A stretch of 64,000 nucleotides of DNA from Candidatus Aminicenantes bacterium (GCA_963827565.1 CAWHBG010000002.1:970952-1034951); one strand, 5' to 3'. Shown: positions 23,091 through 45,571, counted from the first letter of the stretch. Notes: generated from the letters alone by a model not told the origin. Numbers and translations are program-made.

Positions 23091-23099
23091 GAGACGAAC

Positions 23100-23600
23100 A
23101 TGAAAAACAGAAGAAATAAAGAGAAAGGTTCAGTTCTTATACTTGTACTCTTCGGAGTTATAATCCTCTCCATGATGGGGGTAACAGGACTTAACCGAAG
23201 TAAGACCGAAATAAGTATTACAAGGAATTTTTTTGCTGACAAGGACTCATTCTTTACGGCTGAGAACGGGATCAGCATGGGAACTGATATGTTAAGGGAT
23301 TCGGTTGATCCGGCAGGTGAAATATTCGGTCCGGTTACCGACGGGACAAGGACCTTCCGGAGCGGCCCCTTGTACGATACATACGGATATAAGATAACAG
23401 ACCCCCAATATATCACACCCTTTCTTGCTTTCGATCCGCCACCGCCAATAGGGATATCACTGGAGACAAGCGGTTCCATGGGTGTGGCAGTCACACCCTG
23501 GCAGGTGATATCCTCCTCCGCGGTCAAAGTTCCCGGAGGCGGCAATGACGCAAGGAAAGAAGTAAGGTCGATCGTCGTTATGTTAAATTCCGAATATTAG
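23100..23600 (+). CDS. PilX-like pilus assembly protein
   Basis: N-terminus KGSVLILVLFGVIILSMMGVTGLNRSKTEISITRN resembles the PilX N-terminal domain. Located directly upstream of pilY1. Confidence 0.55.
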   Translation: MKNRRNKEKGSVLILVLFGVIILSMMGVTGLNRSKTEISITRNFFADKDSFFTAENGISMGTDMLRDSVDPAGEIFGPVTDGTRTFRSGPLYDTYGYKITDPQYITPFLAFDPPPPIGISLETSGSMGVAVTPWQVISSSAVKVPGGGNDARKEVRSIVVMLNSEY

Positions 23601-23609
23601 GAGGAAGAG

Positions 23610-26939: not shown

Positions 26940-26941
26940 AA

Positions 26942-30700: not shown

Positions 30701-30942
30701 GAAAATGCTATCATTTTACCGTCAGGAGAGAATTTCGGCCTTACATCATTACCGATATGATCGGTCAGCCTCTCACTCCTTCCCCCTTTTACCGGTGCCT
30801 TCCATATATCACCTTTATAACTGAATACAACATATTGGGAATCCGGTGAAATATCCGGATATCTGAGCAGAGAAATATCCTCACCGGCAGTCAACAAAAA
30901 TGAGATTAATAAGATCTGAACTAAAAAGAATAATTTTTTCAT
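27790..30942 (-). CDS. Tricorn-like protease (TolB-type beta-propellers + PDZ + S41 peptidase), secreted
   Basis: 1050 aa with a signal peptide. The start LLRYPDISPDSQYVVFSYKGDIWKAPVKGG is typical of tricorn homologs. There are repeated WSPDG/SPDGK propeller blades and a C-terminal S41 region (DVRYNGGG). Confidence 0.8.
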   Translation of the reverse strand: MKKLFFLVQILLISFLLTAGEDISLLRYPDISPDSQYVVFSYKGDIWKAPVKGGRSERLTDHIGNDVRPKFSPDGKMIAFSSDRDGNYDVFIIPSEGGHAKQLTYRSSDDEVTGWKGDGSAVIFHSRRDLHFYYGNSGIFSVSVTGGMPLLLMGQMAMNGSLSKDGKFLAFNINRIPEFRQRYRGPANNDIWVYNLEKDRYFKLTEHPGNDKWPVFGQGGLYYVSDRDETFNLWKMERDGENKTQLTFHKGDQVRFPAISPDGKFVIYEYLNKLFRKDEGEDAYPLEISASTENKHDYIVKRSYTSEASEMRVSPDGNYYAFVIRGEIFVLKKDWERAKNISNSPYREANISWTSDSRGVLFDSDMNGNRDIFIAYPEGERDIYHSYKYKLKQLTGSEAEERYGVLSPDNKKIVYIKGNGNLVMKTIGEETENFLLKSWNVSDITWSPDGNYLSYSHMDNNFTSDVYIYDLKDSKAFNISRHPDDDYFPIWSPDGKFLYFISKRSNNNMDIWRLALRKEWFEMTPDEWQKMEEDNKKKKPAEKDGEKAPEVKTPPLPIEFNDIHLRVTHLTELLGDEFGLAVSPNSKTIAFTAGNDEGTGLYKIGWDGKEKKILINKGNEFGSLHFGDKGDDLFFIKSGMLNQMNIKKGKPKTIPFSAKLTIDMGAENIQKFEEAWRAMRDNFYDAKFHGTDWNGIYNKYRPWINEGLSRYEFDYIFTMILGELNGSHLRIKSRMEKERKKVETGDIGVFFDDNFKGPGFRVKTVLKDSPAYHKNSRLEEGDIITSINGEDAGTGANFYMFMEDKAGEAVMLQVLRGEDKLDVEIIPEKSNRNFIYNTWIGSNQKKVDELSGGKLAYVHIQSMGWPNLEKFERELHSIAYGKEGLVIDVRYNGGGWITDYLLQILMTKNHAVTIPRGGGKGYPHGRRSIFAYTKPIVVLINQMSYSNAEIFPWSIRTLKRGPIVGKQTFGAVISTGGTALIDGTWLRLPFRGWYVNDGTMTNMELNGCPPDYPVENLPGEERKGIDRQLNKGVEVLLDKVKDAEKSKIWN

Positions 30943-31044
30943 TCCACCACCTCTATTATAAGTTTAATGAAAAAATATAGCATATAAGTTTAAATTTGAA
31001 AATTTTTTTTGGAAATATGGAATTTAAAAACTAACAAAAAAGGC

Positions 31045-31072
31045 CGCCCCCGAAGGGACGGCCCATATGTTA
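31045..31072 (-). terminator. Rho-independent terminator of barrel gene copy 1
   Basis: The minus strand reads gggccgtccc-ttcg-ggggcggcc followed by tttttt. The sequence is identical at 37973..38002. Confidence 0.75.
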
Positions 31073-31094
31073 ATACCGTTTTTAGTTTACGATA

Positions 31095-33959
31095 TTAGAA
31101 GTTAACTCTGAATCCAAACTGGAATATCCCGGGATTAAGGATCCTCTGGATAGCACCAGTTGCTGATGTACCAAGTAACGGCTCAACACCTAATGTAATA
31201 GCATTATTTGTTACATTGTATGCATCTACAAAAAGTGTTGCTGTTACTGTGTCAGATACCTTAAAGGTCTTCTCAAGTCCCATGCTCAGCATCCAGAATG
31301 TAGGCAACCTGTCATCACCCATTTTTTTATTGGGTTGATACATGTTCGTCCAGCTGAGTCCGGAGCCTCTCTGAAATTCTTCATAGTAAGGGATGACATA
31401 ACCTTCTCTTGCCTGAAGAACAGCGGTTATATTTATTCCCCAGGGCAATTGATAAAGGCCTGACATTTTCAACATCCATCTGGAGTTAACAAAGATTCCC
31501 GTGTATCCTGATCCACCGGATTCCGGTGCCACAACCGCTTCGTTGAAAAAATCGTAGTTTGTCTTATCAAACCACTCTGAAGTATCTCTTTTTGCAATCC
31601 AATCCTGATAGGTGAATGATGCATCGAACATCCATTTGTTCGAGAATTTCTTTGTGAATACAAGCTGAAGTGCCAAATACTGGTTGTAGGTTTTCTCATA
31701 GTTGGCCATCTGTTGAGCAACACCGACTTCATATCTTTCATAATAAGGTTTGGTTGATCCGTCAGAGAATGTATAAATCCCCTTCTGATACCAGTTAGCA
31801 GCAGTTTCAAGACTGCCATCCGCCATGATATTCTTGTATCTGATCTGATTGTGTTTTTTCTTATAGAAAAGGGTAACATTCGTTGCAAAATCTTCTCCCA
31901 GCTCTTTCTCAAATGAAAGTGATAATTCATCAAGTATAGGTGAATTGAGATCTGACGCGTATGTGTTACTGCTTGTTACTCCATAAGGATTAACTGTATC
32001 TACATGCCAATAATACCAATCATCTGGATCTTCACTCCATTCACCAAGTTCAACAATACCATCGCCATCATCTGCCCAGTAAACATCAATTTCTCTCCAG
32101 TCAAGAGCCCAGGTATGATCAGCAATGGAGTTACCACTCTGTGATCCGTACCTTGCAGCAGATAATTTTATAACATTCTTCCCGTCACCGGTAATATCAT
32201 ATGAGAACGAAAGTCTTGGAGAAAACACTTCAAAAGCTGCATCTGCTTTAGCTCCAATAGCTGTTCTGTCACCCAGGTAAGCTGTGAATATGGGAACACC
32301 GTTAAGTGTTAATCCCGGAGCTGTTGCAGGATTGTGTGATCCTGATTCTTTATCATATCTGAGGCCGATGTTAGCTGTTAATTTTCCAAATGTTATTGTA
32401 TCGGACAGGTAGAATGACATCCTTTCAAATCCAACATCATACACGTAGTTGGGGTACCACCAGATCTCTCTGTAGTAACCCGGATCTCCTCTGTCCCATG
32501 AGTACAGAAACCTTTGGTTGGGATACAGTGACTGAGATGTTGTATCCGCTGTGTAATAATCAACACCGAATCTGATCTCATGGTCACCGCCGAGTACTCC
32601 CTCAGCAAAATAGTTACCGCTGAGTGAAAGGTTCAATGTATTTCTGTTGGTGAAATAATCGTACATTCCGCCCTCTACATAGAATCCGGGCTGGGAATAA
32701 TAAGTCCAGTCATCACCCACCATTTTACCGTCTTCAATAACATTGGTAGGATTATTTGAAATCAGCTCAAATCCACCGTCTGTGTAAGCGAACTTTGCTG
32801 TTAACATCAGATTGCCCATGATGTGCTGCAGTGAACCGGTGTAAACCGCGCCCGGACCATCCTGGTTGTGGAGTGATTCCTGAACTGCTGCGCCCCATCT
32901 GGCACGACCCCACTTTTTCTTTGCATCATATGAATAGTGGAAATCACCACTGGTGTTACCCAATTGGAAATTTACCTTACCATAAGCTGATACCAGCCAT
33001 GTTGCATCCTCACCGCCTGTGATCTGTCTGGCGTGAATGTCCTGTACTCCCCATGATCCGAAGAACCACAATTTGTCCTTTACGATCGGGCCACCGAAGT
33101 TAACGCCATACTGATACAATCTGAAGATTCCGGGTGATACCAATCCTTGATCCAGAATAGATTGGGGAAGATCCTGACTCATTTCCCATGCTTCATCTTC
33201 AATATAAAGATGAAAGTCTCCACTATAATTATTACCTGCTCTCTTCGAAACGAAGTTCAGCTGTACTCCACCTGTCTGAGCTGTAATATCATTGCTGCCA
33301 AGTGTGATCTGAAGTTCTTCATATGCATTAACATTCAGATAAGCAGGAGCAGATCCGATCGCTGACGGGTCTGTCATGTTAGCGCCGTCAATGTTCCATG
33401 TTGTATCATCGGAATCTGATCCATGGCCATAAAATGATGACTGCTGACCTGATTCAGCTCCACCAACATCTTCCCTGTCCATCATCATACCTGGTACCAG
33501 GTTCATGACTGTCCATGGGTTTCTTGCTGTCGGAAGTGACTGCATCATTTCCTGTGATACATTAACTGATACTGTTGTCTTTCTTGTATCAATTACATTT
33601 GCCTCTCCTGTAACTTCTATAACTTCTTTTAACTGAGAGGTCTCCATCTGAAAGGTAAAGGTCTTGTTCTTACCAACGAACAGCCTTATCGCTTTCTGAA
33701 CTACTGTCTTGAACCCTTCGAGCTCAAGCTTTAATTCATAAATTCCCGGGGGATTTGAGAGAAATCTGAAATTCCCCTGTTCAGATGTAACTGTAACTGT
33801 CTTACCGATAACATCACCGGTCAGAGTTACTGCTACTCCGGGGATTGCTGATCCATCAGGCAGTACTACTGTACCGTAGATGTCAGCTGTTGCTCCCTGA
33901 GCGAATGCCAGTCCTGAAAGAACTGCAACCGCTACGAGCAGTGTTAAAAAATTTTTCAT
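31095..33959 (-). CDS. Oar-like outer-membrane barrel (carboxypeptidase-regulatory-like domain + TonB-dependent-receptor-type plug and barrel), copy 1
   Basis: 954 aa with a signal peptide (LSGLAFAQG). CarboxypepD_reg-like segment GTVVLPDGSAIPGVAVTLTG...GNFRF..PPGIYELK.E.EGF, a plug-like region, and a terminal aromatic FGFRVNF. AGGAGG lies before the ATG. Confidence 0.8.
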   Translation of the reverse strand: MKNFLTLLVAVAVLSGLAFAQGATADIYGTVVLPDGSAIPGVAVTLTGDVIGKTVTVTSEQGNFRFLSNPPGIYELKLELEGFKTVVQKAIRLFVGKNKTFTFQMETSQLKEVIEVTGEANVIDTRKTTVSVNVSQEMMQSLPTARNPWTVMNLVPGMMMDREDVGGAESGQQSSFYGHGSDSDDTTWNIDGANMTDPSAIGSAPAYLNVNAYEELQITLGSNDITAQTGGVQLNFVSKRAGNNYSGDFHLYIEDEAWEMSQDLPQSILDQGLVSPGIFRLYQYGVNFGGPIVKDKLWFFGSWGVQDIHARQITGGEDATWLVSAYGKVNFQLGNTSGDFHYSYDAKKKWGRARWGAAVQESLHNQDGPGAVYTGSLQHIMGNLMLTAKFAYTDGGFELISNNPTNVIEDGKMVGDDWTYYSQPGFYVEGGMYDYFTNRNTLNLSLSGNYFAEGVLGGDHEIRFGVDYYTADTTSQSLYPNQRFLYSWDRGDPGYYREIWWYPNYVYDVGFERMSFYLSDTITFGKLTANIGLRYDKESGSHNPATAPGLTLNGVPIFTAYLGDRTAIGAKADAAFEVFSPRLSFSYDITGDGKNVIKLSAARYGSQSGNSIADHTWALDWREIDVYWADDGDGIVELGEWSEDPDDWYYWHVDTVNPYGVTSSNTYASDLNSPILDELSLSFEKELGEDFATNVTLFYKKKHNQIRYKNIMADGSLETAANWYQKGIYTFSDGSTKPYYERYEVGVAQQMANYEKTYNQYLALQLVFTKKFSNKWMFDASFTYQDWIAKRDTSEWFDKTNYDFFNEAVVAPESGGSGYTGIFVNSRWMLKMSGLYQLPWGINITAVLQAREGYVIPYYEEFQRGSGLSWTNMYQPNKKMGDDRLPTFWMLSMGLEKTFKVSDTVTATLFVDAYNVTNNAITLGVEPLLGTSATGAIQRILNPGIFQFGFRVNF

Positions 33960-33990
33960 TTTAACCTCCTATTTAATCTGGAATTTAAGA

Positions 33991-34010
33991 AGCAATACCC
34001 TTTCCCAGGG
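33991..34010 (-). promoter_or_regulatory. Candidate -24/-12 (sigma-54-like) promoter of barrel copy 1
   Basis: The minus strand reads ctGGgaaagggtatTGCttc, with GG and GC in the canonical 12-nt register about 33 nt upstream of the ATG. A similar element sits at the same position in copy 2. Only a partial match to TGGCAC-N5-TTGCW. Confidence 0.3.
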
Positions 34011-34031
34011 GATCAAATGCTTACAATAACT

Positions 34032-34062
34032 GGGACAAAACGATTGTTTTCGGGGACAAACG
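34032..34062 (-). promoter_or_regulatory. Direct repeats CGTTT(T)GTCCC, two copies about 20 bp apart, upstream of barrel copy 1
   Basis: The minus strand reads cgtttgtcccc-gaaaacaat-cgttttgtccc. One copy of the same motif (ccgtttgtccc) occurs at 40972..40982 at the same distance from the copy 2 promoter-like element. Confidence 0.35.
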
Positions 34063-34206
34063 ACCTATTTATGACCACCAAATATATAAAAACGATTCCG
34101 GATATTAAGATATAAAATAAATTTTGTGGCTTTATTCATTTTTACGAACTATTAAATCCAATATTTTGATTAAAGCGCTGTTGATAAAAAGAAAGATCCG
34201 GTAATT

Positions 34207-34566
34207 TTAGAGAAACAGGTCAGGGCTTATCTCTTCTTCGTTCATATTAAGCATATCCAGGTTTAGAGAGACCTTTTTCCTGATCTTTCTCAGATTGTAT
34301 TTTTTGATCTTTTCACAAAGAGAAGTTTCTTTGATCCCCAGGATCCGTGACGCATTTTTTTGATTCCCGTTTGTCAGCCCGAGTGTAAAAAGAATTATCT
34401 TCCTCTCCAGATCACTTATAAAATGTTTAAGGGCAATGTTTTCCTGAGTTATATTCTTCTGAAGATATTCTCTCACCAGAACTTCGGAAAGATCATCCAG
34501 TCCGGATAGATCATTTGAATTATACGTATTATTAATTTTATTTGAAAGTATTTGACTGCTTTTCAT
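34207..34566 (-). CDS. Small Fis-type helix-turn-helix protein (no AAA+ or receiver domain), copy 1
   Basis: 119 aa. The C-terminal NGNQKNASRILGIKETSLCEKIKKYNL is a Fis/NtrC-C-terminal type HTH. The N-terminal ~60 aa have no recognisable domain. Confidence 0.6.
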   Translation of the reverse strand: MKSSQILSNKINNTYNSNDLSGLDDLSEVLVREYLQKNITQENIALKHFISDLERKIILFTLGLTNGNQKNASRILGIKETSLCEKIKKYNLRKIRKKVSLNLDMLNMNEEEISPDLFL

Positions 34567-34577
34567 ATTTTCTCTCC

Positions 34578-34904
34578 TTAATTAGCAAGAACCCTTTTTA
34601 AGTTATTCCTGAACTTCTTCCCCCATAACACTGTCACATCATCGCTCATTACGACAAAATAATTATAGTTCAGATCTGATTCAATCTTTTGAATCTTCTC
34701 TATATTAATAATCGTAGACCTGTTCACCCTGACAAACTTATCCGGATCCAGTTTTTTCTCAAACTCAGACAAAGTATTTCTTATCAGAAAAGAATTCTTC
34801 CCTTTATAAAGCCTCTGATAATTCCTCTCTGATTCGATCCTGTCAATATCCTCACATTTCAGGACGATGAATTTTCTACCAAGCTTTACCATTAAACGGT
34901 TCAT
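34578..34904 (-). CDS. Stand-alone LytTR DNA-binding domain protein (no receiver), copy 1
   Basis: 108 aa. The pattern I..IES..NY....K..SFLIR.TLSEFEKKL....F.RVNRS.I.NI..I is the LytTR domain signature. AGGAG lies upstream. Confidence 0.75.
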   Translation of the reverse strand: MNRLMVKLGRKFIVLKCEDIDRIESERNYQRLYKGKNSFLIRNTLSEFEKKLDPDKFVRVNRSTIINIEKIQKIESDLNYNYFVVMSDDVTVLWGKKFRNNLKRVLAN

Positions 34905-34965
34905 TTCCTTTTCTCCTAAATTAGCCTGCTATATATTAATACGATCAAAAATGAACAAAATTCTA

Positions 34966-34977
34966 TAACTTTGGTTA
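34966..34977. promoter_or_regulatory. Conserved imperfect palindrome TAACTTTGGTTA (site 1, copy 1)
   Basis: An identical 12-mer occurs at 41927..41938, in the equivalent divergent intergenic region of copy 2. Confidence 0.4.
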
Positions 34978-35016
34978 TTTATTCAAATTTGTGAATTTAG
35001 TAATACACAATTCGAC

Positions 35017-35034
35017 ATATGACTTTAGTCATAT
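35017..35034. promoter_or_regulatory. Perfect palindrome ATATGACT-TT-AGTCATAT (site 2, copy 1)
   Basis: 8-bp arms. The copy 2 counterpart, TGTTACT-TT-AGTAACA at 41981..41996, keeps dyad symmetry through paired substitutions. Confidence 0.45.
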
Positions 35035-35140
35035 TCGCAGACAATTCTCCACTTTCTTTCTTAAGTTTCGTATTAACATTCATGAAAGTGAATATTTGTG
35101 AAACATTTATGAAAATTTTTTCGTTTTAAACAATGTAGAT

Positions 35141-37909
35141 ATGAAGAACTTTATTATCATAATTGTGTTTATTATCGGGATAAGTGTATTCCCTGTGTAT
35201 TCAAATGATCTTATCAATTCATTATCATTCAACCATATTTCAAAAAAGGATGGATTATCAGATGATCTTGTTTTCTCGATATTTCAAGACAGCTATGGGT
35301 ATATATGGATAGGAACATCCAATGGCCTCAACAGGTATGACGGATACAATTTTAAAATATTTGTAACTAATCCAAAAGATCCTGAGTCAATAGCTCATAA
35401 CGTAGTTACCTGGATATGTGAAGATAATGACAAAAATATCTGGCTTGCAACTTATGGCGGAGGAGTTTCAAAATTTGACAGGAGAACCAACACTTTCAGG
35501 AATTATATGTCTTTTGACAAAACAAAAGAAAATAACGGTTTAATAGTAAATCATATCAATTTAGATTCAAAAAACAGGTTGTGGATATCTTCAAAAGGCG
35601 GAGGTCTCATTTTATTTATTCCCGGGACTCAAAAGGTAAAACGTTTCGGAAATAATCCGGTTAATTCAGACTCACTAAACGAAGACAATATCATGTCTAC
35701 TTTTGAAGATTCAAGCGGCAATATATGGATCGCAACCTGGGGAAGCGGTTTGTATAAATATTGTGAAGTGAGCAAAGAGTTTAAACAAATAATATCTGAT
35801 CCCTATACAGGAAATGATGTGCAATACAAATATATTCATTCGATCCTGGAAGATCCGGAAAAAAACCTCTGGCTCGGAACCGGCAAGACCGGACTTGTAA
35901 AATATATAAAAAAAACAGGCAGTTTCCAGAGTTTCGGTATAGAACAAGACAGAGTTGTGCATATAAGAAAAAAGAAAATAAGTACAATTTTTCATGACCC
36001 CGATAACGACAACCTCATATGGATCGGCACCGAGAACGGGCTCTATATTTACAGAATTGCAGAGGACAAGTTTATTGAATACAAAAAGGAGAACAGTGAA
36101 GCCGGGCTCTCTAATAATTATGTCTGGAGTATATTAAGAGACAGATCAGGACTATTATGGATAGGAACCATTGGAGGAGGACTAAATTTAGAGAAGAGAG
36201 GCAGTGAATTCTTTTCCCTGTTCGATAAAGTGGAACAAAAAGGGAATATATTTAATTCCCCAAACATATCAGCTGTTTACACTGACAAAAGAGATGCTTC
36301 AATATTATGGGTTGGTACATTGGGAAGTGGTTTACAAAAGGTAGATCTCCAATCCGGAAAATCAGAAATGGTGAGAATTTCAGTTCATAAGAACAATTTA
36401 ATTGCAGGAAAGAACATTACCCGCATTAATCCTGATCCTGACAATCCGGATATTTTATATATTGGGACAAATTCCGGACTCAGCAAATATAATATCAGGG
36501 AAAATCTTTTTGTAAGGCTGGAATCTCCGTTAGATGAATTGAGCAAGTTTAATTCAGCATTTATTTCTACTCTAAAAACCTCTGGTCCATCTCCAAGGTT
36601 ATTGTGGATAGGATCACTTGGCAGGGGACTGTATAAACTTGATCTTGATAAATATAACCTTTCAAACTATTTGCTCCAGAAGGATTTCAGGAATAATCCG
36701 GAGAGGAATAGAGTTTATACAATATCCCCTTCATTAACAGACAAAAACACATTATGGCTTGGAACAAATGAGGGCCTCACCCGATTTGCGATCCGTTCAG
36801 GGATATTTAAATTAATTTTTCCGAAAACAACAACTAAACCCGGAATAACCGCACCGGTTTTATCAATTTATGAATCTGAACATCAACCTGGAATCATATG
36901 GTGCGGTACAAGGAAAAATGGATTGATCAGGTTTGATACCAGCAGCAATTCTTTTAACAGATTAAGTATAAATAACGGATTGCCCGATAATTCTATTGTT
37001 TCCATAGTGGAAGAACCCCGGGGTACTTTATGGCTCGGGACATTAAAGGGACTCTCACGTTTTATTATCAGCACAGGTAAATTCAGGAATTTTGACAAGC
37101 GTGAAGGACTGAACAATTCGAGTTATAATCTTAATACATCCCATGTAAGCCATGACGGAATAGTATTCATAAGCGGTTCGAACGGAATAGATTGTTTTTC
37201 ACCGGAGAGGCTGAATACTAATATGCACATACCCCCTATTGTTATCACAGGGCTGAAAATTTTCGGTAGTTCAGAACTCCCGGGAATGGATCAGATCCTG
37301 AAAAATGATATTTCTTTAACAGATGAAATTACACTTCCGCACTATTACAATACATTGACTTTAAGTTTCGCCGCACTCGATTATACCTCCCCTAAAAAGA
37401 ACCAGTTTTCATGCAGGCTTGAATCTCTAAATAGTAACTGGACCTTTCTCGGAACAAAAAATAGTATAAATTACAGGGATCTGAAACCGGGAAAATATAC
37501 TTTCATTGTAAAAGGATCCAATAGCGACTCGATCTGGAATGAGACAGGCAGGAAACTGACCATAATAATAACTGGAACTTTAATCAGTTCATTCTGGTTC
37601 TGGATAATAATTGCTGTTATTGTTTTTTTCATGGTCTTTCTTTTAAGATACCTGGTCAGAAAATTTAAAAAGAACAGTATCCCTCCGGGAACAACTATTG
37701 AACAGCTAATTCGTGATGAGATAATTACTGAAAGAGAAAAAGAGATAATCACACTTATTCTGCAGGGAAAAAGCAATAAAGATATAGAGGATGAATTATT
37801 CATTTCACTCGGAACTGTCAAAAATCATCTCTATAACATTTATAAAAAACTTAATGTTAAAAGCCGGACACAACTGGTAAGTATTGTAAGATCTGAAGAA
37901 AAACCTTAA
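35141..37909 (+). CDS. Membrane-tethered one-component regulator: signal peptide, two-component-regulator beta-propeller repeats, Y_Y_Y domain, TM helix, LuxR/GerE HTH; copy 1
   Basis: 922 aa with repeated ...IW(I/L)GT..GL..(Y/F) propeller blades. Y_Y_Y region YRDLKPGKYTFIVKGSNSDSIWNE, TM helix FWFWIIIAVIVFFMVFLL, and C-terminal ITEREKEIITLILQGKSNKDIEDELFISLGTVKNHLYNIYKKLNVKSRTQLV. Confidence 0.8.
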   Translation: MKNFIIIIVFIIGISVFPVYSNDLINSLSFNHISKKDGLSDDLVFSIFQDSYGYIWIGTSNGLNRYDGYNFKIFVTNPKDPESIAHNVVTWICEDNDKNIWLATYGGGVSKFDRRTNTFRNYMSFDKTKENNGLIVNHINLDSKNRLWISSKGGGLILFIPGTQKVKRFGNNPVNSDSLNEDNIMSTFEDSSGNIWIATWGSGLYKYCEVSKEFKQIISDPYTGNDVQYKYIHSILEDPEKNLWLGTGKTGLVKYIKKTGSFQSFGIEQDRVVHIRKKKISTIFHDPDNDNLIWIGTENGLYIYRIAEDKFIEYKKENSEAGLSNNYVWSILRDRSGLLWIGTIGGGLNLEKRGSEFFSLFDKVEQKGNIFNSPNISAVYTDKRDASILWVGTLGSGLQKVDLQSGKSEMVRISVHKNNLIAGKNITRINPDPDNPDILYIGTNSGLSKYNIRENLFVRLESPLDELSKFNSAFISTLKTSGPSPRLLWIGSLGRGLYKLDLDKYNLSNYLLQKDFRNNPERNRVYTISPSLTDKNTLWLGTNEGLTRFAIRSGIFKLIFPKTTTKPGITAPVLSIYESEHQPGIIWCGTRKNGLIRFDTSSNSFNRLSINNGLPDNSIVSIVEEPRGTLWLGTLKGLSRFIISTGKFRNFDKREGLNNSSYNLNTSHVSHDGIVFISGSNGIDCFSPERLNTNMHIPPIVITGLKIFGSSELPGMDQILKNDISLTDEITLPHYYNTLTLSFAALDYTSPKKNQFSCRLESLNSNWTFLGTKNSINYRDLKPGKYTFIVKGSNSDSIWNETGRKLTIIITGTLISSFWFWIIIAVIVFFMVFLLRYLVRKFKKNSIPPGTTIEQLIRDEIITEREKEIITLILQGKSNKDIEDELFISLGTVKNHLYNIYKKLNVKSRTQLVSIVRSEEKP

Positions 37910-37972
37910 AGAATAATTGTTTACCACAGTTCCCGGAGAATCCCGTAAGCTTCTAAATATAATATTCATTAT

Positions 37973-38002
37973 AAAAAAAAGGCCGCCCCCGAAGGGACGG
38001 CC
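37973..38002 (-). terminator. Rho-independent terminator of barrel gene copy 2
   Basis: Same hairpin as 31045..31072, with an 8-nt U-tract on the minus strand. It marks the junction between the two cassette copies. Confidence 0.75.
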
Positions 38003-38033
38003 CATATGTTAATACCGTTTTTAGTTTACGATA

Positions 38034-40897
38034 TTAGAAGTTAACTCTGAATCCAAACTGGAATATCCCGGGATTAAGGATCCTCTGGATAGCACCAGTT
38101 GCTGATGTACCAAGTAACGGCTCAACACCTAATGTAATTGAATTATTGGTTACATTGTATGCATCTACAAAAAGTGTTGCTGTTACTGTGTCAGACACCT
38201 TAAAGGTCTTCTCAAGTCCCATGCTCAGCATCCAGAATGTAGGCAACCTGTCATCACCCATTTTTTTACCGGGTTGATACATGTTGGTCCAGCTGAGGCC
38301 GGAACCTCTCTGAAATTCTTCATAATATGGAATGACATAACCTTCTCTTGCCTGAAGAACACCGGTGATATTGATGCCCCAGGGAAGCTGATAAAGTCCT
38401 GACATCTTCAGCATCCATCTGGAGTTCACAAAGATACCGGTATATCCGGATCCTTCGGATTCCGGTGCCACAACGCCCTCATTGAAATAATCGTAGTTTG
38501 TCTGATCAAAAAACTCTGAAGAATCTCTTTTTGCAATCCAATCCTGATAAGTGAAAGATGCATCGAACATCCATTTGCTCGAGAATTTCTTTGTTAATAC
38601 AAACTGTACAGCCAGGTATTGGTTATAGGTTTTCTGATAGTTTGCCATCTGGGTAGCAACACCTACTTCATATCTTTCATAATAAGGTTTGCTTGATCCG
38701 TCAGAGAATGTAAAAGTCCCCTTCTGATACCAGTTAGCTGCAGTCTCAAGACTGCCGTCAGCCATGATGTTCCTGTACCAAAGCTGTTTGCTTTTCTTCT
38801 TATAGAAAAGTGTTACATTCGCGGCAAAATCAGCTCCCAGCTCTTTCTCAAATGAAAGTGATAATTCATCAAGTATAGGTGAATTGAGATCTGATGCGTA
38901 TGTGTTACTGCTTGTTACTCCATAAGGATTAACTGTATCTACATGCCACCACAACCAGGTTGATGGATCTTCATCCCACTCACCAAGTTCAACAATACCA
39001 TCGCCATCATCTGCCCAGTAAACATCAATTTCTCTCCAGGAAAGAGCCCATGTATGGGAAGCAATTGAGTTACCACTCTGTGATCCGTACCTTGCTGCTG
39101 AAAGCTTGATCACATTCTTACCGTCACCTGTAATATCATATGAGAACGAAAGTCTTGGAGAAAATACCTTAAAAGAACCATCTGCTTTAGCTGCAATAGC
39201 TGTTCTGTCACCCAGGTAAGCTGTGAATATGGGAACACCGTTAAGTGTTAATCCCGGAGCTGTAGCCCCATTATGTGAGCCTTGTTCCTGATCATATCTG
39301 AGTCCGATGTTGGCTGTTAATTTACCGAATGTTATTGTATCGGACAGATAGAATGACATCCTTTCGAATCCGACATCATACATATAGTTCGGATACCACC
39401 AGATCTCTCTGTAGTAACCCGGATCGGTTCTGTCCCATGAGTACAGAAACCTTTGGTTGGGATACAGTGACTGAGATGTTGTGTCCGCTGTGTAATAGTC
39501 AACACCGAATCTGATCTCATGGTCTCCGCCGAGTACTCCCTCAGCAAAATAGTTACCGCTGAGTGAAACGTTCAATGTGTTTCTGTTGGTGAAATAATCC
39601 TGCATTCCGCCCTCTACATAGAATCCGGGCTTAGAATAATAAGTCCAGTCATTACCGACCATTTTACCGTCTTCAATAACATTGGTAGGATCATTTGATC
39701 TCAGCTCAAATCCGCCGTCTGTATAAGCGAACTTGGCGGTTAACATCAGGTTGCCCATGATATGCTGCAATGAACCGGTCATAACAGATCCCGGGCCATC
39801 CTGGTTCCAGAGTGATTCCTGAACTGCAGCGCCCCAAATAGGCCTACCCCATTTTTTCTTTGCATCATATGAATAGTGGAAATCACCACTGGTATTACCC
39901 AATTGGAAATTTACCTTACCATAAGCTGATACCAGCCAGGATGCATCCTCGCCGCCTGTGATCTTCTGGCGTGAATGTCCTGTACTCCCCATGATCCGAA
40001 GAACCACAATTTGTCCTTTACGATCGGGCCACCGAAGTTAACGCCATACTGATACAATCTGAAGATTCCGGGTGATACCAATCCTTGATCCAGAATAGAT
40101 TGCGGAAGATCCTGACTCATTTCCCATGCTTCATCTTCAATATAAAGATGAAAGTCTCCACTATAATTATTACCTGCTCTCTTCGAAACGAAGTTCAGCT
40201 GTACACCACCTGTCTGAGCTGTAATATCATTGCTGCCAAGTGTGATCTGAAGTTCTTCATAAGCATTAACATTCAGATAAGCAGGAGCAGATCCGATCGC
40301 TGACGGGTCTGTCATGTTAGCGCCGTCAATGTTCCATGTTGTATCATCGGAATCTGATCCATGGCCATAAAATGATGACTGCTGACCTGATTCAGCTCCA
40401 CCAACGTCTTCCCTGTCCATCATCATACCTGGTACCAGGTTCATGACTGTCCATGGGTTTCTTGCTGTTGGAAGTGACTGCATCATTTCCTGTGATACAT
40501 TAACTGATACTGTTGTCTTTCTTGTATCAATTACATTCGCCTCTCCTGTAACTTCTATAACTTCTTTTAACTGAGAGGTTTCCATCTGAAAGGTAAAGGT
40601 CTTGTTCTTACCAACGAACAGCCTTATCGCTTTCTGAATTACTGTTTTGAACCCTTCGAGCTCAAGCTTTAATTCATAAATTCCCGGGGGATTTTGAAGG
40701 AATCTGAAATTCCCCTGTTCAGATGTAACTGTAACTGTCTTACCGATAACATCACCGGTTAAAGTTACTGCTACACCCGGGATTGCTGATCCATCAGGCA
40801 GTACTACTGTACCGTAGATGTCAGCTGTTGCTCCCTGAGCGAATGCCAGTCCTGAAAGAACTGCAACCGCTACGAGCAGTGTGAATAATTTTTTCAT
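38034..40897 (-). pseudogene. Oar-like outer-membrane barrel, copy 2, interrupted by a 1-nt deletion relative to copy 1
   Basis: ORFs 38034..40007 and 39911..40960 are colinear with copy 1. The span is 2864 nt against 2865 nt in copy 1. Copy 1 reads gtgatctgtctggcg and copy 2 reads gtgatcttctggcg, at about 39964. The real start is MKKLFTLLVAV (ATG at 40897, AGGAGG upstream). Confidence 0.8.
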
Positions 40898-40930
40898 ATA
40901 AACCTCCTTTAAGTTTATCAAATGTATAGT

Positions 40931-40982
40931 ATGCATAAACCTTTCCCGTAAGCAGATCAATTATTCTCAATGGGACAAACGG
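40931..40982 (-). promoter_or_regulatory. Copy 2 counterpart of the -24/-12-like element plus the CGTTTGTCCC motif
   Basis: The minus strand reads ccgtttgtccc (40972..40982), followed about 25 nt later by acGGgaaaggtttaTGCat (40931..40949). Spacing matches copy 1. Confidence 0.3.
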
Positions 40983-41161
40983 TAAAAATTCAGGGATAAA
41001 AAAACAAATAGTTTTACTGAAAACCCAATGCATGTTCAAAAACAAATCGCCAACATTCATCGTTTTGTATATATTCCAATATTCCGTATTTTTTAGATCG
41101 GTTATATGGATTTTCGGACTATATATTGATATTTGAAAAAATTAATCGTGAGTTTCTTTTA

Positions 41162-41530
41162 TCAGACAAAGAGATCCTGACTGATATCATCTTCTCCCAT
41201 ATTGAGCATATCCAGATTGAGCAGGATCCGCTTTTTATCTTTTTTTAAATTGTATTTTTTTATTTTTTCACAGAGCGAAGTCTCCTTGACACCAAGAATT
41301 CGCGATGCATTTTTCTGATTTCCATTCGTTAGCGAGAGCGTAAAATCAATTATACGTTTCTCAAGATCTGTCATAAATTTTTTTAACGAAGTATTCTCTT
41401 TAGTAATATTTTTCATTAAATACTCACGTACAAGTATTTCAGACAGATCATTAATATTTTTCAGTCCTTTATAGTTCCTTGTTTCGTTATTATTTGTATT
41501 GTTAGTGTTTACTATAATTTCTTGTTCCAT
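41162..41530 (-). CDS. Small Fis-type HTH protein, copy 2
   Basis: 122 aa. The C-terminal NGNQKNASRILGVKETSLCEKIKKYNL is almost identical to copy 1, while the N-terminal part has diverged. Confidence 0.6.
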   Translation of the reverse strand: MEQEIIVNTNNTNNNETRNYKGLKNINDLSEILVREYLMKNITKENTSLKKFMTDLEKRIIDFTLSLTNGNQKNASRILGVKETSLCEKIKKYNLKKDKKRILLNLDMLNMGEDDISQDLFV

Positions 41531-41539
41531 TTTTCCTCT

Positions 41540-41890
41540 TTAATTATAAAGTACCTTCTTGAGATTGCTTCTGAATTTTCTCCCCCATGAAACCGTTACT
41601 TTGTTGTTCATAACAACAAAATAGTTATAATTTGGGTCTGACTCGATCTTACTGATCTGTTCAATATTAACAATAGCAGATCTGTTAACACGAACAAATT
41701 TGTTCGGATCAAGCTTTTTTTCAAAATTTGAAATTGTATCTCGTATAAGAAAAGAATTATTACCCTTATACACCCGGAGATAATTCCTTTCAGATTCGAT
41801 CCAGTCAATATCTTCACATTTCAGGATAATCAATTCCTTCCCAAGTTTCACTACCAACCGTTCCATTTTTTTCCCAGCAATATTTTCCAT
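41540..41890 (-). CDS. Stand-alone LytTR domain protein, copy 2
   Basis: 116-aa ORF. From the internal MERLVVKLG (ATG at 41866) it aligns without gaps to copy 1, with 81 of 108 residues identical by my count. Start codon choice is uncertain. Confidence 0.75.
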   Translation of the reverse strand: MENIAGKKMERLVVKLGKELIILKCEDIDWIESERNYLRVYKGNNSFLIRDTISNFEKKLDPNKFVRVNRSAIVNIEQISKIESDPNYNYFVVMNNKVTVSWGRKFRSNLKKVLYN

Positions 41891-41926
41891 ACCCTATTTA
41901 TACGCAGTTTTTCAAACTATAATATG

Positions 41927-41938
41927 TAACTTTGGTTA
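41927..41938. promoter_or_regulatory. Conserved imperfect palindrome TAACTTTGGTTA (site 1, copy 2)
   Basis: Identical to 34966..34977. Confidence 0.4.
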
Positions 41939-41980
41939 CTAATTCAATAATGTGAATAAAGTAATCAGATTTGCAGAGCG

Positions 41981-41996
41981 TGTTACTTTAGTAACA
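41981..41996. promoter_or_regulatory. Palindrome TGTTACT-TT-AGTAACA (site 2, copy 2)
   Basis: 7-bp arms. Same core, ACT-TT-AGT, as 35017..35034, at a similar distance from site 1 (54 nt against 51 nt). Confidence 0.45.
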
Positions 41997-42110
41997 TCTT
42001 AAATCTATTAAATATAAATCTGTAATAATTTCAGCATTTGTTCTAAAAAAACCTTTTTGTTAATTACTAAACTCTATATTAATTTACCCCGTATAATGCT
42101 AGTTAAAAAC

Positions 42111-44883
42111 ATGAGAACTTTACTAATAAATATACTATTACTCTTTATGATATTTCCTTCATTTGCAGAGGAGATGAATATTGATCTCTCATTTAGTCAT
42201 ATCAATAAAGACGATGGATTATCAGATGATATGATATTTTCAATTTTCCAGGACAGTTCCGGATATATCTGGATCGGTACATCCAACGGCCTAAACAGAT
42301 ATGATGGATATAATATACAAAAAATTTTTTTTGAACCTGAGTCTCCCTCTTCTCTCCCTCACAATACTGTAACCTCGATCTGTGAGGACAATGAAAACAA
42401 TATCTGGATTGCTACATTCGGCGGTGGAATATCTCGTTTTGTTCCAGATACTAACAATTTCAAAAACTATACCTTCTCCAAACAGACAAGCGACCCCGAA
42501 AGCGCAAAAATGATAAACCATATTCAAACTGATTCAAAAAACAGATTGTGGGTCTCAACGAGGGGAGCCGGAGTATTTCTTTTTAATCTTAAAACAAATG
42601 AAATAAAGAACTTCAGCAATATCTCTTTCGGCATGAAAGAGGAAGTTTTAAGCAATGTTATGTCGACTTTTGAGGATTCTAACGGCATCATATGGATCGC
42701 TGCATGGGGTGGTGGCCTGGGAAAATACATCGAAGAGAATGGAATAATAAGAAAAACAGTTCCAAAGAAATCTATAGATACTCCAGGCAGGGGGAATCTC
42801 ATTCACACCATTTTTGAGGATGCCGAAAAAAATCTATGGCTCGGCACACGAGATCACGGAATTATCAGATTTAACAGGATATCAGGGAACTATCGAACTT
42901 TCGGTTTAGAAAAGAACCGGAAAGTAAGTATGATCGGAAAAAGTATTAATTATATTTTTTCAGATCCGGGAAATCACAATCTGATCTGGATAGGCACTGT
43001 TAACGGATTATATGTTTATAAGATCTTTGAAAATAAATTTATCAGTTACAAAAATAAAGACCTCCATTCAGGCCTTAGTAATAATTATATCTGGAGTATT
43101 ATAAGGGACAGATCAGGATTGTTGTGGACAGGAACAATCGGAGGCGGTGTTTTTTTAGAGAAAAGGATAAGAGATTATTTCGGAAGTTTCAATACAACCG
43201 GACCGGAAGGTTACAACCTCAGTTCAAATGTGATCGGATCACTATATTCAAATCAAAATGATTCCGAGAACCTCTGGGTAGGGACCATCGGCGGTGGACT
43301 GAACAGAATAAACCTGAAAACAGGTAAGATCAATTCATATATCTCAAATAACAGAGAGGTCAGTTCATTTACCCCCAGATATATTAATTCTATTATTTCA
43401 GATCCGGATTCTCCGGGTTTTATATTCCTTGGGACAAGTTCTGGATTGAATAAATTCGATATCATCCGGAACGACTTCATTAAGATAACATCATCCAGAA
43501 AAAAATTAGAAGGTTTTAATTCTGTTTTTATCTCAGATCTTATGTTGTCAGAATTTCATAAGGGTTATCTCTGGATCGGCACACATGGAGAAGGGCTTTT
43601 CAAGCTTAACCTGGATGATATGTCTCTTAAAAATTATATTTTCGAAAAAAAAATACGGAACAATTTGGAGAAGAACAGAGTGTATGTGATTAAGCAGTCC
43701 CTTTTAAAAGCAAATATTCTATGGACCGGAACAAACCTTGGACTTGGTAAATTTGATACCGAAAAAGGGACATTCCGGTTTTTTAAAATAATAAACACTG
43801 ATCAATCCGATGAAAAAACATTCGTTCAGTCCTTACATGAATCAGTAACCGAACCTGGAGATATTACGGATCGGAACATGGGGAAAAGGATTGTTCCGCT
43901 TTGATGAAAATAACGGAGCTGTCAGAAGGTTTACAGTAAATGAGGGACTCCCCAACGATTATATAGTTTCAATAGTTGAGGAACCTGTAGGACGTTTGTG
44001 GATCGGGACCCAGGCCGGACTTTCCAGTTATATTATAAAATCGGGGTTTTTCAGAAATTTTAATACAGATGAAGGGCTTCAGAACACCCTTTTCAGATTA
44101 AATGTTTCATTCAAGAACTCGGAAAAAACAATTTTTCTCGGTGGATCAAAGGGGATAGACTATTTCTCCCCGGACAAATTGAGTACGAATATGGTCAAGC
44201 CTCCTGTAGTACTTACAGGATTAAAAGTTTTCGGGAGTACAGAGTTGCCAGGTATGGATGAAATATTAAAAACTGATATTTCAGTGACTGAACAAATCGA
44301 ACTACCCTACAAATACAACACAATAACGATAAGTTTCTCAGCTCTGGATTTCACTTCAACCGGAAAGAATCAGTATGCCTGTAAGATTGAAGAACTTGAT
44401 AAAGAGTGGAAATATCTCGGCACTCAGAATTTTATATCCTACTCAAAACTAAAACCGGGGAAATATACTTTTAAGGTGAAAGGATCTAACAGCGATTCGG
44501 TCTGGAATGAGAAGGGAAGAACTTTAGGCATTATTATTCAGAGTTCTTTTACAAGAACTTTTCTGTATAAAATAATCTATGCCATAATTCTGATCTTCCT
44601 TATTTCCCTGATTTTGTATCTCTGGAGGAAATTGAGACAGATATCATTCTCTCCGGGGATGACCATAGAAAAGCTTATCAGAAAATTCGATATAACAGAG
44701 AGAGAGGCAGATGTAATAAAGTTGATTATTAATGGGAAAAGCAACAAAGAGATCGAAGAGGAATTGTTTATATCACTTGGAACTGTAAAAAATCATCTTT
44801 ATCACATTTACAGGAAACTAAACATCCATAGCAGAACTCAACTTATAAAACTTTTCCGGTCTGACAATCAAAAAGAGGATTGA
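42111..44883 (+). pseudogene. Propeller / Y_Y_Y / TM / LuxR-HTH regulator, copy 2, reading frame broken once
   Basis: ORFs 42057..43904 and 43891..44883 together are colinear with the 922-aa copy 1 protein. The likely start is MRTLLINILLLF (ATG at 42111). The span is 2773 nt, not a multiple of 3. The frame switch lies within 43849..43901 (...TEPGDI / LRIGTWGKGLFRFDENNG...). Confidence 0.75.
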
Positions 44884-45007
44884 TAAACTTATGGCCTCTG
44901 TAAAAGATCCAGGCAAAAACAAGACTGCAAATTTTCCGAAATATATTGAATTAAAATGAGTTTGATTTTATAATACGCTATTGATATAATTTTTTATCGG
45001 AGGAAAC

Positions 45008-45571
45008 ATGAAAAAACTGATCCTGTTTTTACTAATTGCATCTTTTATATCTACATTTCAAGTATCCGGAATAATGATCGATCACAGCAAATTTTCTATA
45101 ACAATTGGTGCAGGAACCAGAGATGTTTCTGAAGATATATTTAAAACCGTCTATGGATCAGGTAATATCGCATTCAGCCTTGATATTGCTTTCAGACTTG
45201 GCAGTTCACTGGAAATATTCGCACATTCGGATTATCTCAAAGCAGAGGGAGAACTGGCATACGATCCGAAAAATACCACCCTTACAATTATACCGGCTGA
45301 AGCGGGACTTAGAATACTTCTGGGGAAAAACAAATTCAAACCTTACCTGGGGATAGGCGCGGGATACTATTTGTTAAAGGAAGAGAATTTTATCGGAACT
45401 GTCGATGACAATAGTATAGGATTTTTTGGAGAAGGAGGATTCAGATACTATTTCGGAAAACTTTTCCTCGATTTAAAATTGAAATATACTCAATTGAAAT
45501 ATGACGTTTCCGGGACAAATATTAATCTTGGAGGTCTCTCTTATTTCGGTGGAATAGGGATAAGATTCTAA
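45008..45571 (+). CDS. Small outer-membrane beta-barrel protein (OmpW/OmpA-barrel-like)
   Basis: 187 aa with a signal peptide, alternating hydrophobic beta-strand pattern, and C-terminal YFGGIGIRF ending in Phe. Confidence 0.6.
   Translation: MKKLILFLLIASFISTFQVSGIMIDHSKFSITIGAGTRDVSEDIFKTVYGSGNIAFSLDIAFRLGSSLEIFAHSDYLKAEGELAYDPKNTTLTIIPAEAGLRILLGKNKFKPYLGIGAGYYLLKEENFIGTVDDNSIGFFGEGGFRYYFGKLFLDLKLKYTQLKYDVSGTNINLGGLSYFGGIGIRF

Follow-up and report, generated by a model that had tools for sequence, protein, structure and literature searches.

A tandem pair of sensor, regulator and transporter modules in Candidatus Aminicenantes with diverged regulators and near-identical barrels

BguR, a 940-residue one-component regulator that spans the membrane, from the laminarin polysaccharide-utilisation locus (PUL) of Formosa agariphila, is a demonstrated activator of the adjacent PUL with its SusCD and carbohydrate-active enzyme (CAZyme) genes (bioRxiv 10.64898/2026.01.10.698779). 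Here we describe two tandem copies of a four-gene module in a 64,000-nucleotide stretch of a Candidatus Aminicenantes bacterium (GCA_963827565.1, CAWHBG010000002.1:970952-1034951; hereafter the window), each of which combines a BguR-type sensor with a receiver-less LytTR protein, a small Fis-like protein and an Oar-like TonB-dependent outer-membrane receptor, which we call the barrel. The sensor has the same domain order as BguR (signal peptide, tandem β-propeller, Y_Y_Y domain, single transmembrane helix and GerE helix-turn-helix), a likeness of architecture, and neither protein has kinase or receiver domains. They are also similar in size (940 residues in BguR, 922 in sensor 1), and both adjoin a gene for a TonB-dependent outer-membrane transporter, with a conserved motif in the intergenic region beside the regulator. 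By contrast, BguR comes from Bacteroidota and the window from Acidobacteriota/Aminicenantes, the adjacent SusD and CAZyme genes of a PUL are lacking here, and an extra tier of LytTR and Fis-like proteins stands between the sensor and a transporter whose promoter is of σ54 type.

Two further groups of described systems share parts of this arrangement. The periplasmic part of the sensor is homologous to the glycan-sensing domain of the Bacteroides hybrid two-component systems (BT4663, PDB 4A2L/4A2M; E = 7e-101), which likewise place the sensor beside a TonB-dependent transporter, but the HisKA, HATPase, REC and AraC domains of those systems are missing here, the output domain is GerE and there is no SusD. 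The LytTR Regulatory Systems of Streptococcus mutans (HdrRM and BrsRM) carry 9-bp direct repeats at a spacing of 11–13 bp, immediately upstream of their own operon's −35 element (PMC6193735). The Aminicenantes module resembles them in its soluble, receiver-less LytTR regulator, its two-gene operon and its 9-bp repeats spaced by 12 bp, a predicted site. However, the partner protein is a soluble Fis-like helix-turn-helix protein rather than a transmembrane inhibitor, and the repeats lie 25–26 nt before the σ54-type −24 box of the barrel gene rather than about 10 bp upstream of the −35 element of their own operon. The region upstream of the LytTR operon itself holds palindromes in place of the autoregulatory repeats of the streptococcal systems.

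Self-comparison of the window (blastn and MAFFT) revealed a single collinear direct repeat, with unit 1 at 31036–37974 and unit 2 at 37975–44883, a period of 6938–6968 nt and no second repeat of comparable size anywhere in the 64 kb. The first 4 kb of the units are 85% identical (31036–35004 against 37975–41965), and similarity of 64–66% runs on across the sensor gene to 37896/44864 (35225–36198 against 42189–43165, 64%; 37175–37875 against 44143–44843, 66%). Both units contain four genes in the same order and orientation. Their Pfam domains are those described in an earlier interpretation of the window made from its nucleotide sequence alone (the sequence-only reading), which had proposed a tandem duplication of about 6.9 kb. 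The genes and terminators are as follows.

31041–31064, minus strand: intrinsic-terminator hairpin of barrel 1, GGGCCGTCCCTTCGGGGGCGGCCT, with a 10-bp stem, 8 GC pairs and a following T run
31095–33959, minus strand: barrel 1 (database entry P0241), Oar-like TonB-dependent receptor by Pfam, 954 aa, intact, with a signal-peptide-like N terminus
34207–34566, minus strand: Fis-like mini-protein 1, 119 aa (Pfam HTH_8)
34578–34904, minus strand: receiver-less LytTR protein 1, 108 aa (Pfam LytTR, E = 2.7e-22, residues 11–106)
35141–37909, plus strand: sensor 1, BguR-type, 922 aa, with signal or anchor at residues 1–25, Reg_prop propellers, Y_Y_Y, transmembrane segment at 806–842 and GerE helix-turn-helix
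37980–38003, minus strand: terminator hairpin of barrel 2, GGGCCGTCCCTTCGGGGGCGGCCT, identical to that of barrel 1 (hairpin search)
38034–40897, minus strand: barrel 2, frameshifted, 94% identical to barrel 1 after repair (open reading frames and alignment)
41162–41530, minus strand: Fis-like mini-protein 2, 122 aa (Pfam HTH_8)
41540–41890, minus strand: receiver-less LytTR protein 2, 116 aa (Pfam)
42096–44883, plus strand: sensor 2, BguR-type, frameshifted, 51% identical to sensor 1 (open reading frames, Pfam and alignment)

LytTR gene 1 stops 11 nt upstream of Fis-like gene 1. The start of sensor 2 is uncertain, as the open reading frame (ORF) begins with TTG at 42057 and the likely ATG is at 42096. 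An ORF survey of the window found no transposase or integrase gene in or beside the units, as the sequence-only reading had noted, and the window contains no tRNA and no known RNA family (Rfam). The two slightly different offsets it had given, 6939 nt at the barrel stop codons and 6938 nt at the start codons, were both seen, and the difference is explained by a 1-nt deletion that breaks barrel 2.

The tandem duplication is real and not an assembly artefact. An independent Logan assembly (run ERR11523668) contains separate contigs that match the unique regulators of each unit at 100%. One of them (L001) corresponds to window positions 33932–38000 and runs from the start of barrel 1 through sensor 1 to the terminator of unit 2, thus crossing the junction, and another (L002) corresponds to 40889–43858. 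These contigs end where near-identical barrel sequence begins, as expected of a repeat in a de Bruijn graph. Moreover, the tandem pair recurs, with none of its eight genes broken and with the same genes downstream of it, in a related genome, GCA_942492175.1 (HOU_bin.0035, contig CALODR010000004.1). An Acidobacteriota metagenome-assembled genome (MAG), GCA_039714475.1, has a single cassette.

Comparison of the window units (W1 and W2) with the tandem pair of GCA_942492175.1 (R1 and R2) revealed that the regulators follow the unit. The Fis-like proteins are 89% identical between W1 and R1 and 81% between W2 and R2, but 66% between W1 and W2; the corresponding values are 95%, 93% and 75% for the LytTR proteins and 74%, 79% and 51% for the sensors. 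Synonymous sites are saturated between W1 and W2 in all three regulator genes, and a neighbour-joining tree of the sensors separates two old clades, each with further metagenomic members. Given this saturation, the unit-wise orthology and the two old clades, the duplication is much older than the split of the genomes, an ancient event common to at least one other genome. The proposal of a segmental duplication thus stands in that a complete module was duplicated in tandem, but such a duplication was not recent.

The barrels behave differently and cluster by genome, not by unit. They are 94% identical between W1 and W2 and 86% between R1 and R2, but only 65–66% between the window and GCA_942492175.1; the barrel of the single-copy genome is 86–89% identical to both R barrels, and the window barrels are 65–66% identical to any of these. 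Along the units, identity is strongly mosaic. It reaches about 100% at the barrel 3′ end and its terminator, single blocks of 100 nt in the barrel middle score 80–99% (most of them 84–94%), and the 5′ end of the barrel is 99% identical over some 930 nt. In the intergenic regions and the three regulator genes, identity falls to 45–75%. Likewise, the number of synonymous substitutions per site (dS) between the window barrels is 0.22 overall, being low near both ends of the gene (0.07 over the 5′ 930 nt, 0.08 at the 3′ end) and higher between them (0.34), and the ratio of nonsynonymous to synonymous rates (dN/dS) is 0.17. Between R1 and R2 the barrel dS is 0.65, and there too the 5′ part has the lowest value. 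Homogenisation extends over about 2.93 kb (31036 to about 33970), a tract that comprises the terminator, the coding sequence and the ribosome-binding site.

Because the barrel was duplicated together with its regulators and is nevertheless far younger at synonymous sites, gene conversion or replacement, repeated in both lineages, is indicated. Only the barrel segment looks young, as a result of homogenisation, and in the window lineage these events include a switch to a divergent barrel allele that later spread to both units. Many members of the barrel family lie on metagenome contigs of about 2.95 kb with this gene alone, and eight related LytTR–Fis–sensor contigs end in the first 50–100 codons of the barrel or just before it. 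Both patterns fit a barrel that, across the lineage, exists in several copies, is homogenised or varies between strains, and has unique flanks.

Gene conversion homogenises paralogous outer-membrane protein genes such as babA and babB of Helicobacter and opa of Neisseria. The barrels resemble these in that surface-protein paralogues are alike within a genome, with mosaic conversion tracts and diverged flanks, in this case regulators that follow orthology. They differ in that the converted genes encode TonB-dependent receptors and belong to tandem regulatory cassettes, in a lineage that is environmental and uncultured, and antigenic or phase variation is not evidenced here.

The domain content of the module proteins suggests their roles. 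In the sensor, Pfam detects six Reg_prop stretches (E = 1.8e-38) and Y_Y_Y (E = 6.7e-14) but none of the HisKA, HATPase and REC phosphorelay domains; the N terminus (residues 1–25) is hydrophobic, a single transmembrane helix spans 806–842 and GerE occupies 861–915. Outside its own clade, the sensor is only about 30% identical to propeller proteins of the GerE type. By its architecture, the sensor is a predicted BguR-type membrane-spanning one-component regulator. In proteins of other lineages (P0029, P0067 and locus L030 3–3260), the same propeller/Y_Y_Y sensor is fused to a σ54-interaction AAA+ domain; P0029 and P0067 additionally carry HTH_8. By domain content, all are one-component σ54 activators that span the membrane, and these fusions show that such a sensor and σ54 control can be coupled.

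The LytTR proteins (108 and 116 aa) consist of the LytTR domain alone and have no transmembrane segment. The Fis-like protein matches HTH_8 (E = 5e-8), aligns to residues 28–97 of Escherichia coli Fis (E = 1.1e-5) and also matches the C-terminal DNA-binding region of NtrC-type activators; no transmembrane or hydrophobic segment was found, as expected of a soluble protein. A family alignment revealed an invariant GNQxxASxILG…EKI core and a conserved basic-then-acidic C-terminal tail. All 23 relatives found are stand-alone proteins of 116–125 aa, and fused LytTR–HTH_8 or AAA+-containing versions, which we considered, were absent among these matches. Similar to Fis (helices A–D) and to the C-terminal ~70 residues of NtrC, PrdR and DhaR, the protein is built on HTH_8. 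Unlike Fis, a global nucleoid protein, it is module-specific and multi-copy, and it is further distinguished by its tail of about 25 residues, its lack of an AAA+ domain and its constant position after a LytTR gene.

The barrel matches Plug (28.9 bits, cut-off 23.9), OMP_b-brl_4 (81.8 bits) and CarboxypepD_reg (52.2 bits), all above the Pfam cut-offs. A search of the PDB at E ≤ 0.001 gave no relative by sequence, and we liken the barrel by domain architecture to Oar of Myxococcus xanthus, which has an N-terminal carboxypeptidase-regulatory-like domain, a plug and a large barrel (PMC6434023). Differences between the W1 and W2 barrels are not enriched in predicted loops (p = 0.15, on a poor AlphaFold2 model), and with this result and this model we make no claim of surface-loop diversification.

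We identified two sets of conserved DNA sites in each unit, one in the divergent promoter between the LytTR and sensor genes and one upstream of the barrel.

33992–34005, minus strand: σ54-type −24/−12 element of barrel 1, GGAAAGGGTATTGC, its GC 32 nt before the ATG
34032–34061, minus strand: LytTR-type direct repeat of unit 1, GTTTGTCCC-N12-TTTTGTCCC (9+12+9), its architecture matching known sites (PMC4064291, PMC6193735)
34965–35032: operator-like palindromes O1–O3 of unit 1, in the divergent promoter (alignment of 11 loci, as for the three sites that follow)
34965–34978: O1 of unit 1, ATAAC-TTTG-GTTAT
34980–34997: O2 of unit 1, (T)ATTCA-N6-TGAATT
35019–35032: O3 of unit 1, ATGAC-TTTA-GTCAT
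40933–41001, minus strand: LytTR-type repeat of unit 2, TTTTATCCC-N12-GTTTGTCCC, and σ54-type element GGAAAGGTTTATGC (orthologue alignment)
41926–41995: operators O1–O3 of unit 2 (alignment and motif counts)
41926–41939: O1 of unit 2, GTAAC-TTTG-GTTAC, followed by O2 at 41941–41958
41982–41995: O3 of unit 2, GTTAC-TTTA-GTAAC, with half-sites unlike those of unit 1

In the divergent promoter, the three palindromes are kept in all 11 loci despite diverged flanking DNA. O1 reads (A/G)TAAC-TTTG-GTTA(T/C) and O2 reads AATTCA-N6-TGAATT across the loci, and the starts of O1 and O3 are 54–56 bp apart. O3 depends on the unit type, being ATGAC-TTTA-GTCAT in W1, R1 and locus L065 and GTTAC-TTTA-GTAAC in W2 and R2. 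The pattern ACTTTRGTNA has four matches in the window, against 1.07 expected, all of them in the divergent promoters.

Upstream of each barrel, a 9+12+9 direct repeat is followed after 25–26 nt by GG-N10-GC within …TTGC(A/T), the GC lying 32–35 nt before the barrel start codon. This composite pattern occurs twice in the window (0.005 expected) and 17 times in 1.39 Mb of loci, in every case in the Fis–barrel intergenic region; in loci whose barrel start is present and unambiguous, 33–34 nt separate the −12 element from that start. The position of GG…TTGC is conserved in W1, W2, R1, R2, A, L063 and L065. Of the barrels that have a LytTR–Fis pair next to them, 7 of 12 are preceded by a GTCCC repeat pair, as against none of the 19 that have no such neighbours. 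The binding core of AlgR from Pseudomonas aeruginosa, CCGTTCGTC / CCGTTTGTC (PMC4064291), closely resembles these repeats: the proximal repeat of unit 2 includes CCGTTTGTC exactly and that of R1 is CTGTTCGTC. AlgR differs in possessing a receiver domain and in being paired with a cognate kinase, and its sites are often not direct repeats with 12-bp spacing.

Across 30 distinct barrel paralogues, the strict σ54 pattern TGG[CT]A-N6-TTGC was found upstream of 12 (mean 0.013 and maximum 1 in shuffled sequences, 0 on the opposite strand), and a relaxed pattern upstream of 25 (mean 0.78, maximum 5; 2 on the opposite strand). A window-wide count of the σ54 pattern is uninformative on its own. A strict σ54-like motif, TGGTAACTC[C/A]ATTGC, also lies inside both barrel coding sequences, at corresponding places (32122 and 39061, minus strand), where it may be either a chance match or an internal promoter.

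We consider the best explanation of the locus as a whole, with a probability of about 60%, to be a pair of old tandem modules with converted barrels, in which the sensor would act through the LytTR–Fis pair on a σ54-type barrel promoter. Sequence comparison shows how the genes evolved, which domains they encode, and that the DNA elements exist and are specific; the binding of particular proteins to particular sites, the direction of regulation, the ligand and the dependence on σ54 are predicted from them. According to this model, the periplasmic tandem-propeller/Y_Y_Y domain of the sensor would bind a ligand, most likely an oligosaccharide, and its cytoplasmic GerE domain would act on the palindromic operators to switch on the divergent LytTR–Fis operon. 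The receiver-less LytTR protein would then bind the 9+12+9 repeat upstream of the barrel gene, whose centres lie at about −55 and −76. Together with the Fis-like protein, a putative DNA-bending or adaptor protein, it would stimulate the σ54-type promoter from which the TonB-dependent barrel is expressed, and an AAA+ σ54 activator whose gene lies elsewhere would have to take part. The barrel would import the substrate, and the two units would couple two different signals to nearly one transporter. What has diverged between the units is the sensor (51% amino-acid identity) and operator O3, whereas the LytTR-type repeats are the same and the barrels nearly so, a combination that suggests two inputs to one kind of transporter. 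The sequence-only reading had suggested paralogous, possibly insulated uptake channels; for the transporter this is contradicted by barrels that are 94% identical and share the same LytTR-type repeats and promoter.

Several observations weigh against this model. No AAA+ σ54-interaction domain is encoded within 8–10 kb of any barrel module, which leaves the σ54 step incomplete as modelled, and the −24 boxes of the window itself are degenerate (GGAAAG, not GGCAC). The AlphaFold2 model of the barrel is poor (predicted local distance difference test score, pLDDT, 59), with a long run of β-strands at residues 245–953 and a badly modelled plug region. No SusD, glycoside hydrolase or other catabolic gene adjoins the cassette in the window; the absence of a SusD-like ORF beside a barrel likewise refers to the window, the loci of relatives having been scanned with the hidden Markov models of the four cassette families only. 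Codon bias in a highly expressed gene could contribute a little to the lower barrel dS, and cross-mapped polishing reads could have homogenised the barrels somewhat in both long-read MAGs. As the main cause, however, such polishing is countered by the grouping at the protein level, the short-read contigs that hold only the barrel, and the single-copy genome L006.

As sequenced, unit 2 is not the complete functional module that had been proposed, with frameshifts in two of its four genes. Barrel 2 has a 1-nt deletion opposite G33026, between 39964 and 39965 (about codon 312), which leaves ORFs of 657 and 349 aa, and its database entry is a 622-aa fragment (P0242). Sensor 2 has a 1-nt insertion at 43859/43860, which leaves ORFs of 615 and 330 aa. 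A one-base repair in each gene restores full-length proteins. One possible explanation is that both units are intact and the frameshifts are consensus or assembly errors; the other is that unit 2 is a freshly decaying copy. A barrel dN/dS of 0.17 implies purifying selection on both copies until very recently, the cis-elements and both small regulators of unit 2 are intact, and so is the orthologous unit of GCA_942492175.1. The barrel indel lies at most 14 nt from the edge of the 99% tract, the likeliest place for reads to be mis-mapped, and Logan contig L002 stops at 43858, directly before the sensor indel, as it would if two alleles branched there. Other long-read MAGs (L090 and L091) have split barrels as well. 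These points favour errors or polymorphism. By contrast, neither indel sits in a homopolymer, an informal and non-systematic look at the long ORFs of the window noticed no other obviously split gene, and the chance that unit 2 would receive both of two random errors is about (6.9/64)^2, or 1%. The sensor region is non-repetitive, so mis-polishing driven by the repeat cannot account for the sensor indel, and a W2-type barrel on another contig, of 1.28 Mb, is split at a different site (near residue 400; P0243 and P0244). On this evidence we regard the choice between errors and recent decay as nearly even, with errors a shade below one half.

Some observations on barrel genes elsewhere stand beside this question. 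The other contig (1,277,211 bp, from the same genome or a relative) also encodes an intact barrel (P0121) that is 90% identical to barrel 1; of the sensors found to be close relatives of those in the window, none came from this contig. The split paralogues in other MAGs, at L090 8001–10878 (HOU_bin.0035 contig_17881) and L091 8001–10911 (MFD05942), are each divided into two ORFs, so that either such genes are often inactivated or their consensus is repeatedly at fault. For the indels of unit 2, we rejected phase variation and programmed frameshifting, as there is no repeat tract and no slippery sequence.

A second alternative concerns the barrel promoter. It is possible, but in our view unlikely, that GG-N10-GC is not a σ54 promoter and that LytTR activates an ordinary σ70-type promoter, for which no AAA+ activator would be needed. 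The lack of such an activator nearby and the degenerate −24 box of the LytTR-associated barrels are both in keeping with this, and known LytTR regulators act at σ70 promoters from repeats just upstream of the −35 element. However, inspection of the alignment by eye revealed no conserved, properly spaced −35 and −10 elements between the repeats and the Shine-Dalgarno sequence, whereas GG and TTGC are conserved at a fixed spacing and a fixed distance from the ATG, and the canonical TGGCA-N6-TTGC form is present in 12 of the 30 paralogues. A σ54-type promoter is the reading that we retain.

It is doubtful that the barrel is an exporter like Myxococcus Oar, for instance for the neighbouring tricorn-like protease, instead of a nutrient importer. 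The two share the overall Oar-type architecture (N-terminal CarboxypepD_reg, Plug and barrel), Oar is needed for secretion of the protease PopC (PMC6434023), and a tricorn-type protease flanks the island in three genomes. Nevertheless, the protease belongs to the island flank and not to each module, most modules elsewhere have none, its gene sits past the terminator of the barrel, and the sensor type of the module is known from glycan-uptake loci. Import by the barrel remains the preferred function.

Strong purifying selection combined with codon bias could in principle make barrels alike within a genome with no gene conversion, and the near-invariance of the N-terminal domain and plug throughout the family, together with a barrel GC content of 43% against 33–37% in the regulators (possibly codon bias), would agree with this. 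We nonetheless find it improbable: selection on the protein does not hold synonymous sites at a dS of 0.07–0.34 beside saturated adjacent genes, the variation of dS along the barrel is mosaic, in tract-like blocks, and the window barrels are only 65% identical to the R and A barrels when the window regulators are 74–95% identical to those of R, which indicates that barrels are not intrinsically slower to change. In the GC profile of 31000–45000, the barrels stand at about 43–44% and the regulator genes and intergenic regions at 33–37%, a contrast that could stem from codon bias of a highly expressed gene or from GC-biased gene conversion.

Very improbable is a recent duplication of the whole 6.9-kb unit followed by very fast divergence of the regulators; the collinearity, near-constant offsets and identical terminators would fit it, but the regulator paralogues are saturated at synonymous sites against a barrel dS of 0.22, the regulators of each unit are closer to their orthologues in another genome than to the sister unit, and the two old sensor clades have additional metagenomic members. 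Least credible of all is an assembly artefact, with one unit a mis-join or an uncollapsed haplotype of the other: the source is a MAG and Aminicenantes populations hold many close strains, but the regulators of the units differ by 25–50% and so are not haplotypes, and both the Logan contigs and the orthologous tandem pair with its shared downstream genes, as given above, speak for two units.

Two conserved genes outside the repeat mark the edges of the island that holds the modules.

27790–30942, minus strand: tricorn-like protease (PD40 repeats, Tricorn_C1, PDZ, Peptidase_S41; Pfam), left island flank
45008–45571, plus strand: 187-aa OMP_b-brl protein, right island flank (orthologue comparison)

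Between these flanks, the window holds two of each module gene in 13.9 kb. In HOU_bin.0035, the interval from the tricorn-like protease (L068 16939–18882, an orthologue with 81% identity) to the 187-aa outer-membrane protein holds four barrels, four LytTR–Fis pairs and four sensors in about 30 kb, and barrel paralogues are found on four contigs of that genome. The four gene families repeatedly co-occur among the relatives surveyed, and LytTR–Fis(–LytTR–Fis)–barrel arrangements are present in other Aminicenantes MAGs (L067, L069, L070, L077 and L078); neither of the two findings that would have refuted the sequence-only reading was made. The Fis-like gene always directly follows the LytTR gene, and in every module except L070 the two are 1–20 nt apart. 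By these comparisons, the region appears to be two members of a multi-copy family of sensor, regulator and transporter modules that is typical of Aminicenantes (Acidobacteriota), with a variable copy number in the island. Sensor 1 alone, used as a query against species-representative genomes, gave no match, and an alignment-based query is needed there. The tricorn protease was considered as a component of the module and rejected, being a conserved flank that occurs once per island. Between the last sensor and the 187-aa protein, two loci have a 500-aa gene with no Pfam match (L004 19804–21306 and L065 4324–5826), where the window has just 124 nt (44884–45007); L063 is like the window.

Other features of the window lie apart from the cassette. 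An NtrC-type activator is encoded at 9500–10858 and a histidine kinase at 8428–9522, with no link to the cassette. A canonical σ54 motif, TGGCAAGTGTATTGC, lies at 8263 on the minus strand, upstream of a gene at 7162–8301 that is divergent from the kinase and the activator, and this motif and the kinase and activator genes (8428–10858, plus strand) probably make up a σ54 regulon unit of the conventional kind. The organism has σ54 machinery by this evidence, which counts in favour of the σ54 step of the model. At 20962–27748 (plus strand) lies an operon for minor pilins of a type IV pilus, with PilW-like (21945–23090) and PilY1-like (23610–26939) genes; a further canonical σ54 motif, TGGCACAGATATTGC, is located at 21007, near or inside the first listed ORF of this operon, so that the true start of that ORF may be further downstream. 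Finally, an 82-nt direct repeat, 95% identical and rich in G/C runs (16348–16428 and 16892–16973), brackets a 134-aa DUF559 endonuclease-like gene (16426–16830, minus strand), and together these resemble either a small element that has been inserted or a selfish gene flanked by repeats.

The family of every component was already known, as was the logic of a sensor beside a transporter, from BguR and from hybrid two-component PUL systems. In the literature searched, we found no description of the LytTR/Fis-like pair or of σ54-controlled Oar-type receptors in Aminicenantes, and absence there is no proof. Relative to that literature, four things appear to be new: the obligate pairing of LytTR with a Fis-like protein, the position of this pair, with a BguR-type sensor before it, a transporter promoter of σ54 type after it and no activator ATPase, the module family in Aminicenantes and the concerted evolution of its barrels. 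More speculatively, and with little confidence, we suggest that the LytTR protein and the free-standing Fis/HTH_8 protein, always encoded together and translationally coupled, could be an undescribed activator module of σ54 promoters with a BguR-type sensor on top, in islands that diversify sensors as gene conversion keeps the transporter uniform. Such a pair may be a 'split' enhancer-binding system, in which module-specific DNA-binding parts recruit a shared AAA+ ATPase that has no DNA-binding domain of its own, or it may activate σ54 promoters with no conventional enhancer-binding protein.

If the model is true, BguR-type one-component sensors would reach beyond Bacteroidota into Acidobacteria, where the sensor would act through a small LytTR and Fis-like pair on the σ54-type promoter that serves a TonB-dependent transporter, although no activator ATPase is to be seen. 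Such new wiring would raise the question of how σ54 promoters can be served. Homogenisation of the barrels also breaks up short-read assemblies at precisely these genes, and their copy number and linkage are consequently lost, systematically, from Aminicenantes MAGs. The modules would represent a form of modular evolution in which sensors diverge freely and gene conversion keeps the transporter uniform.

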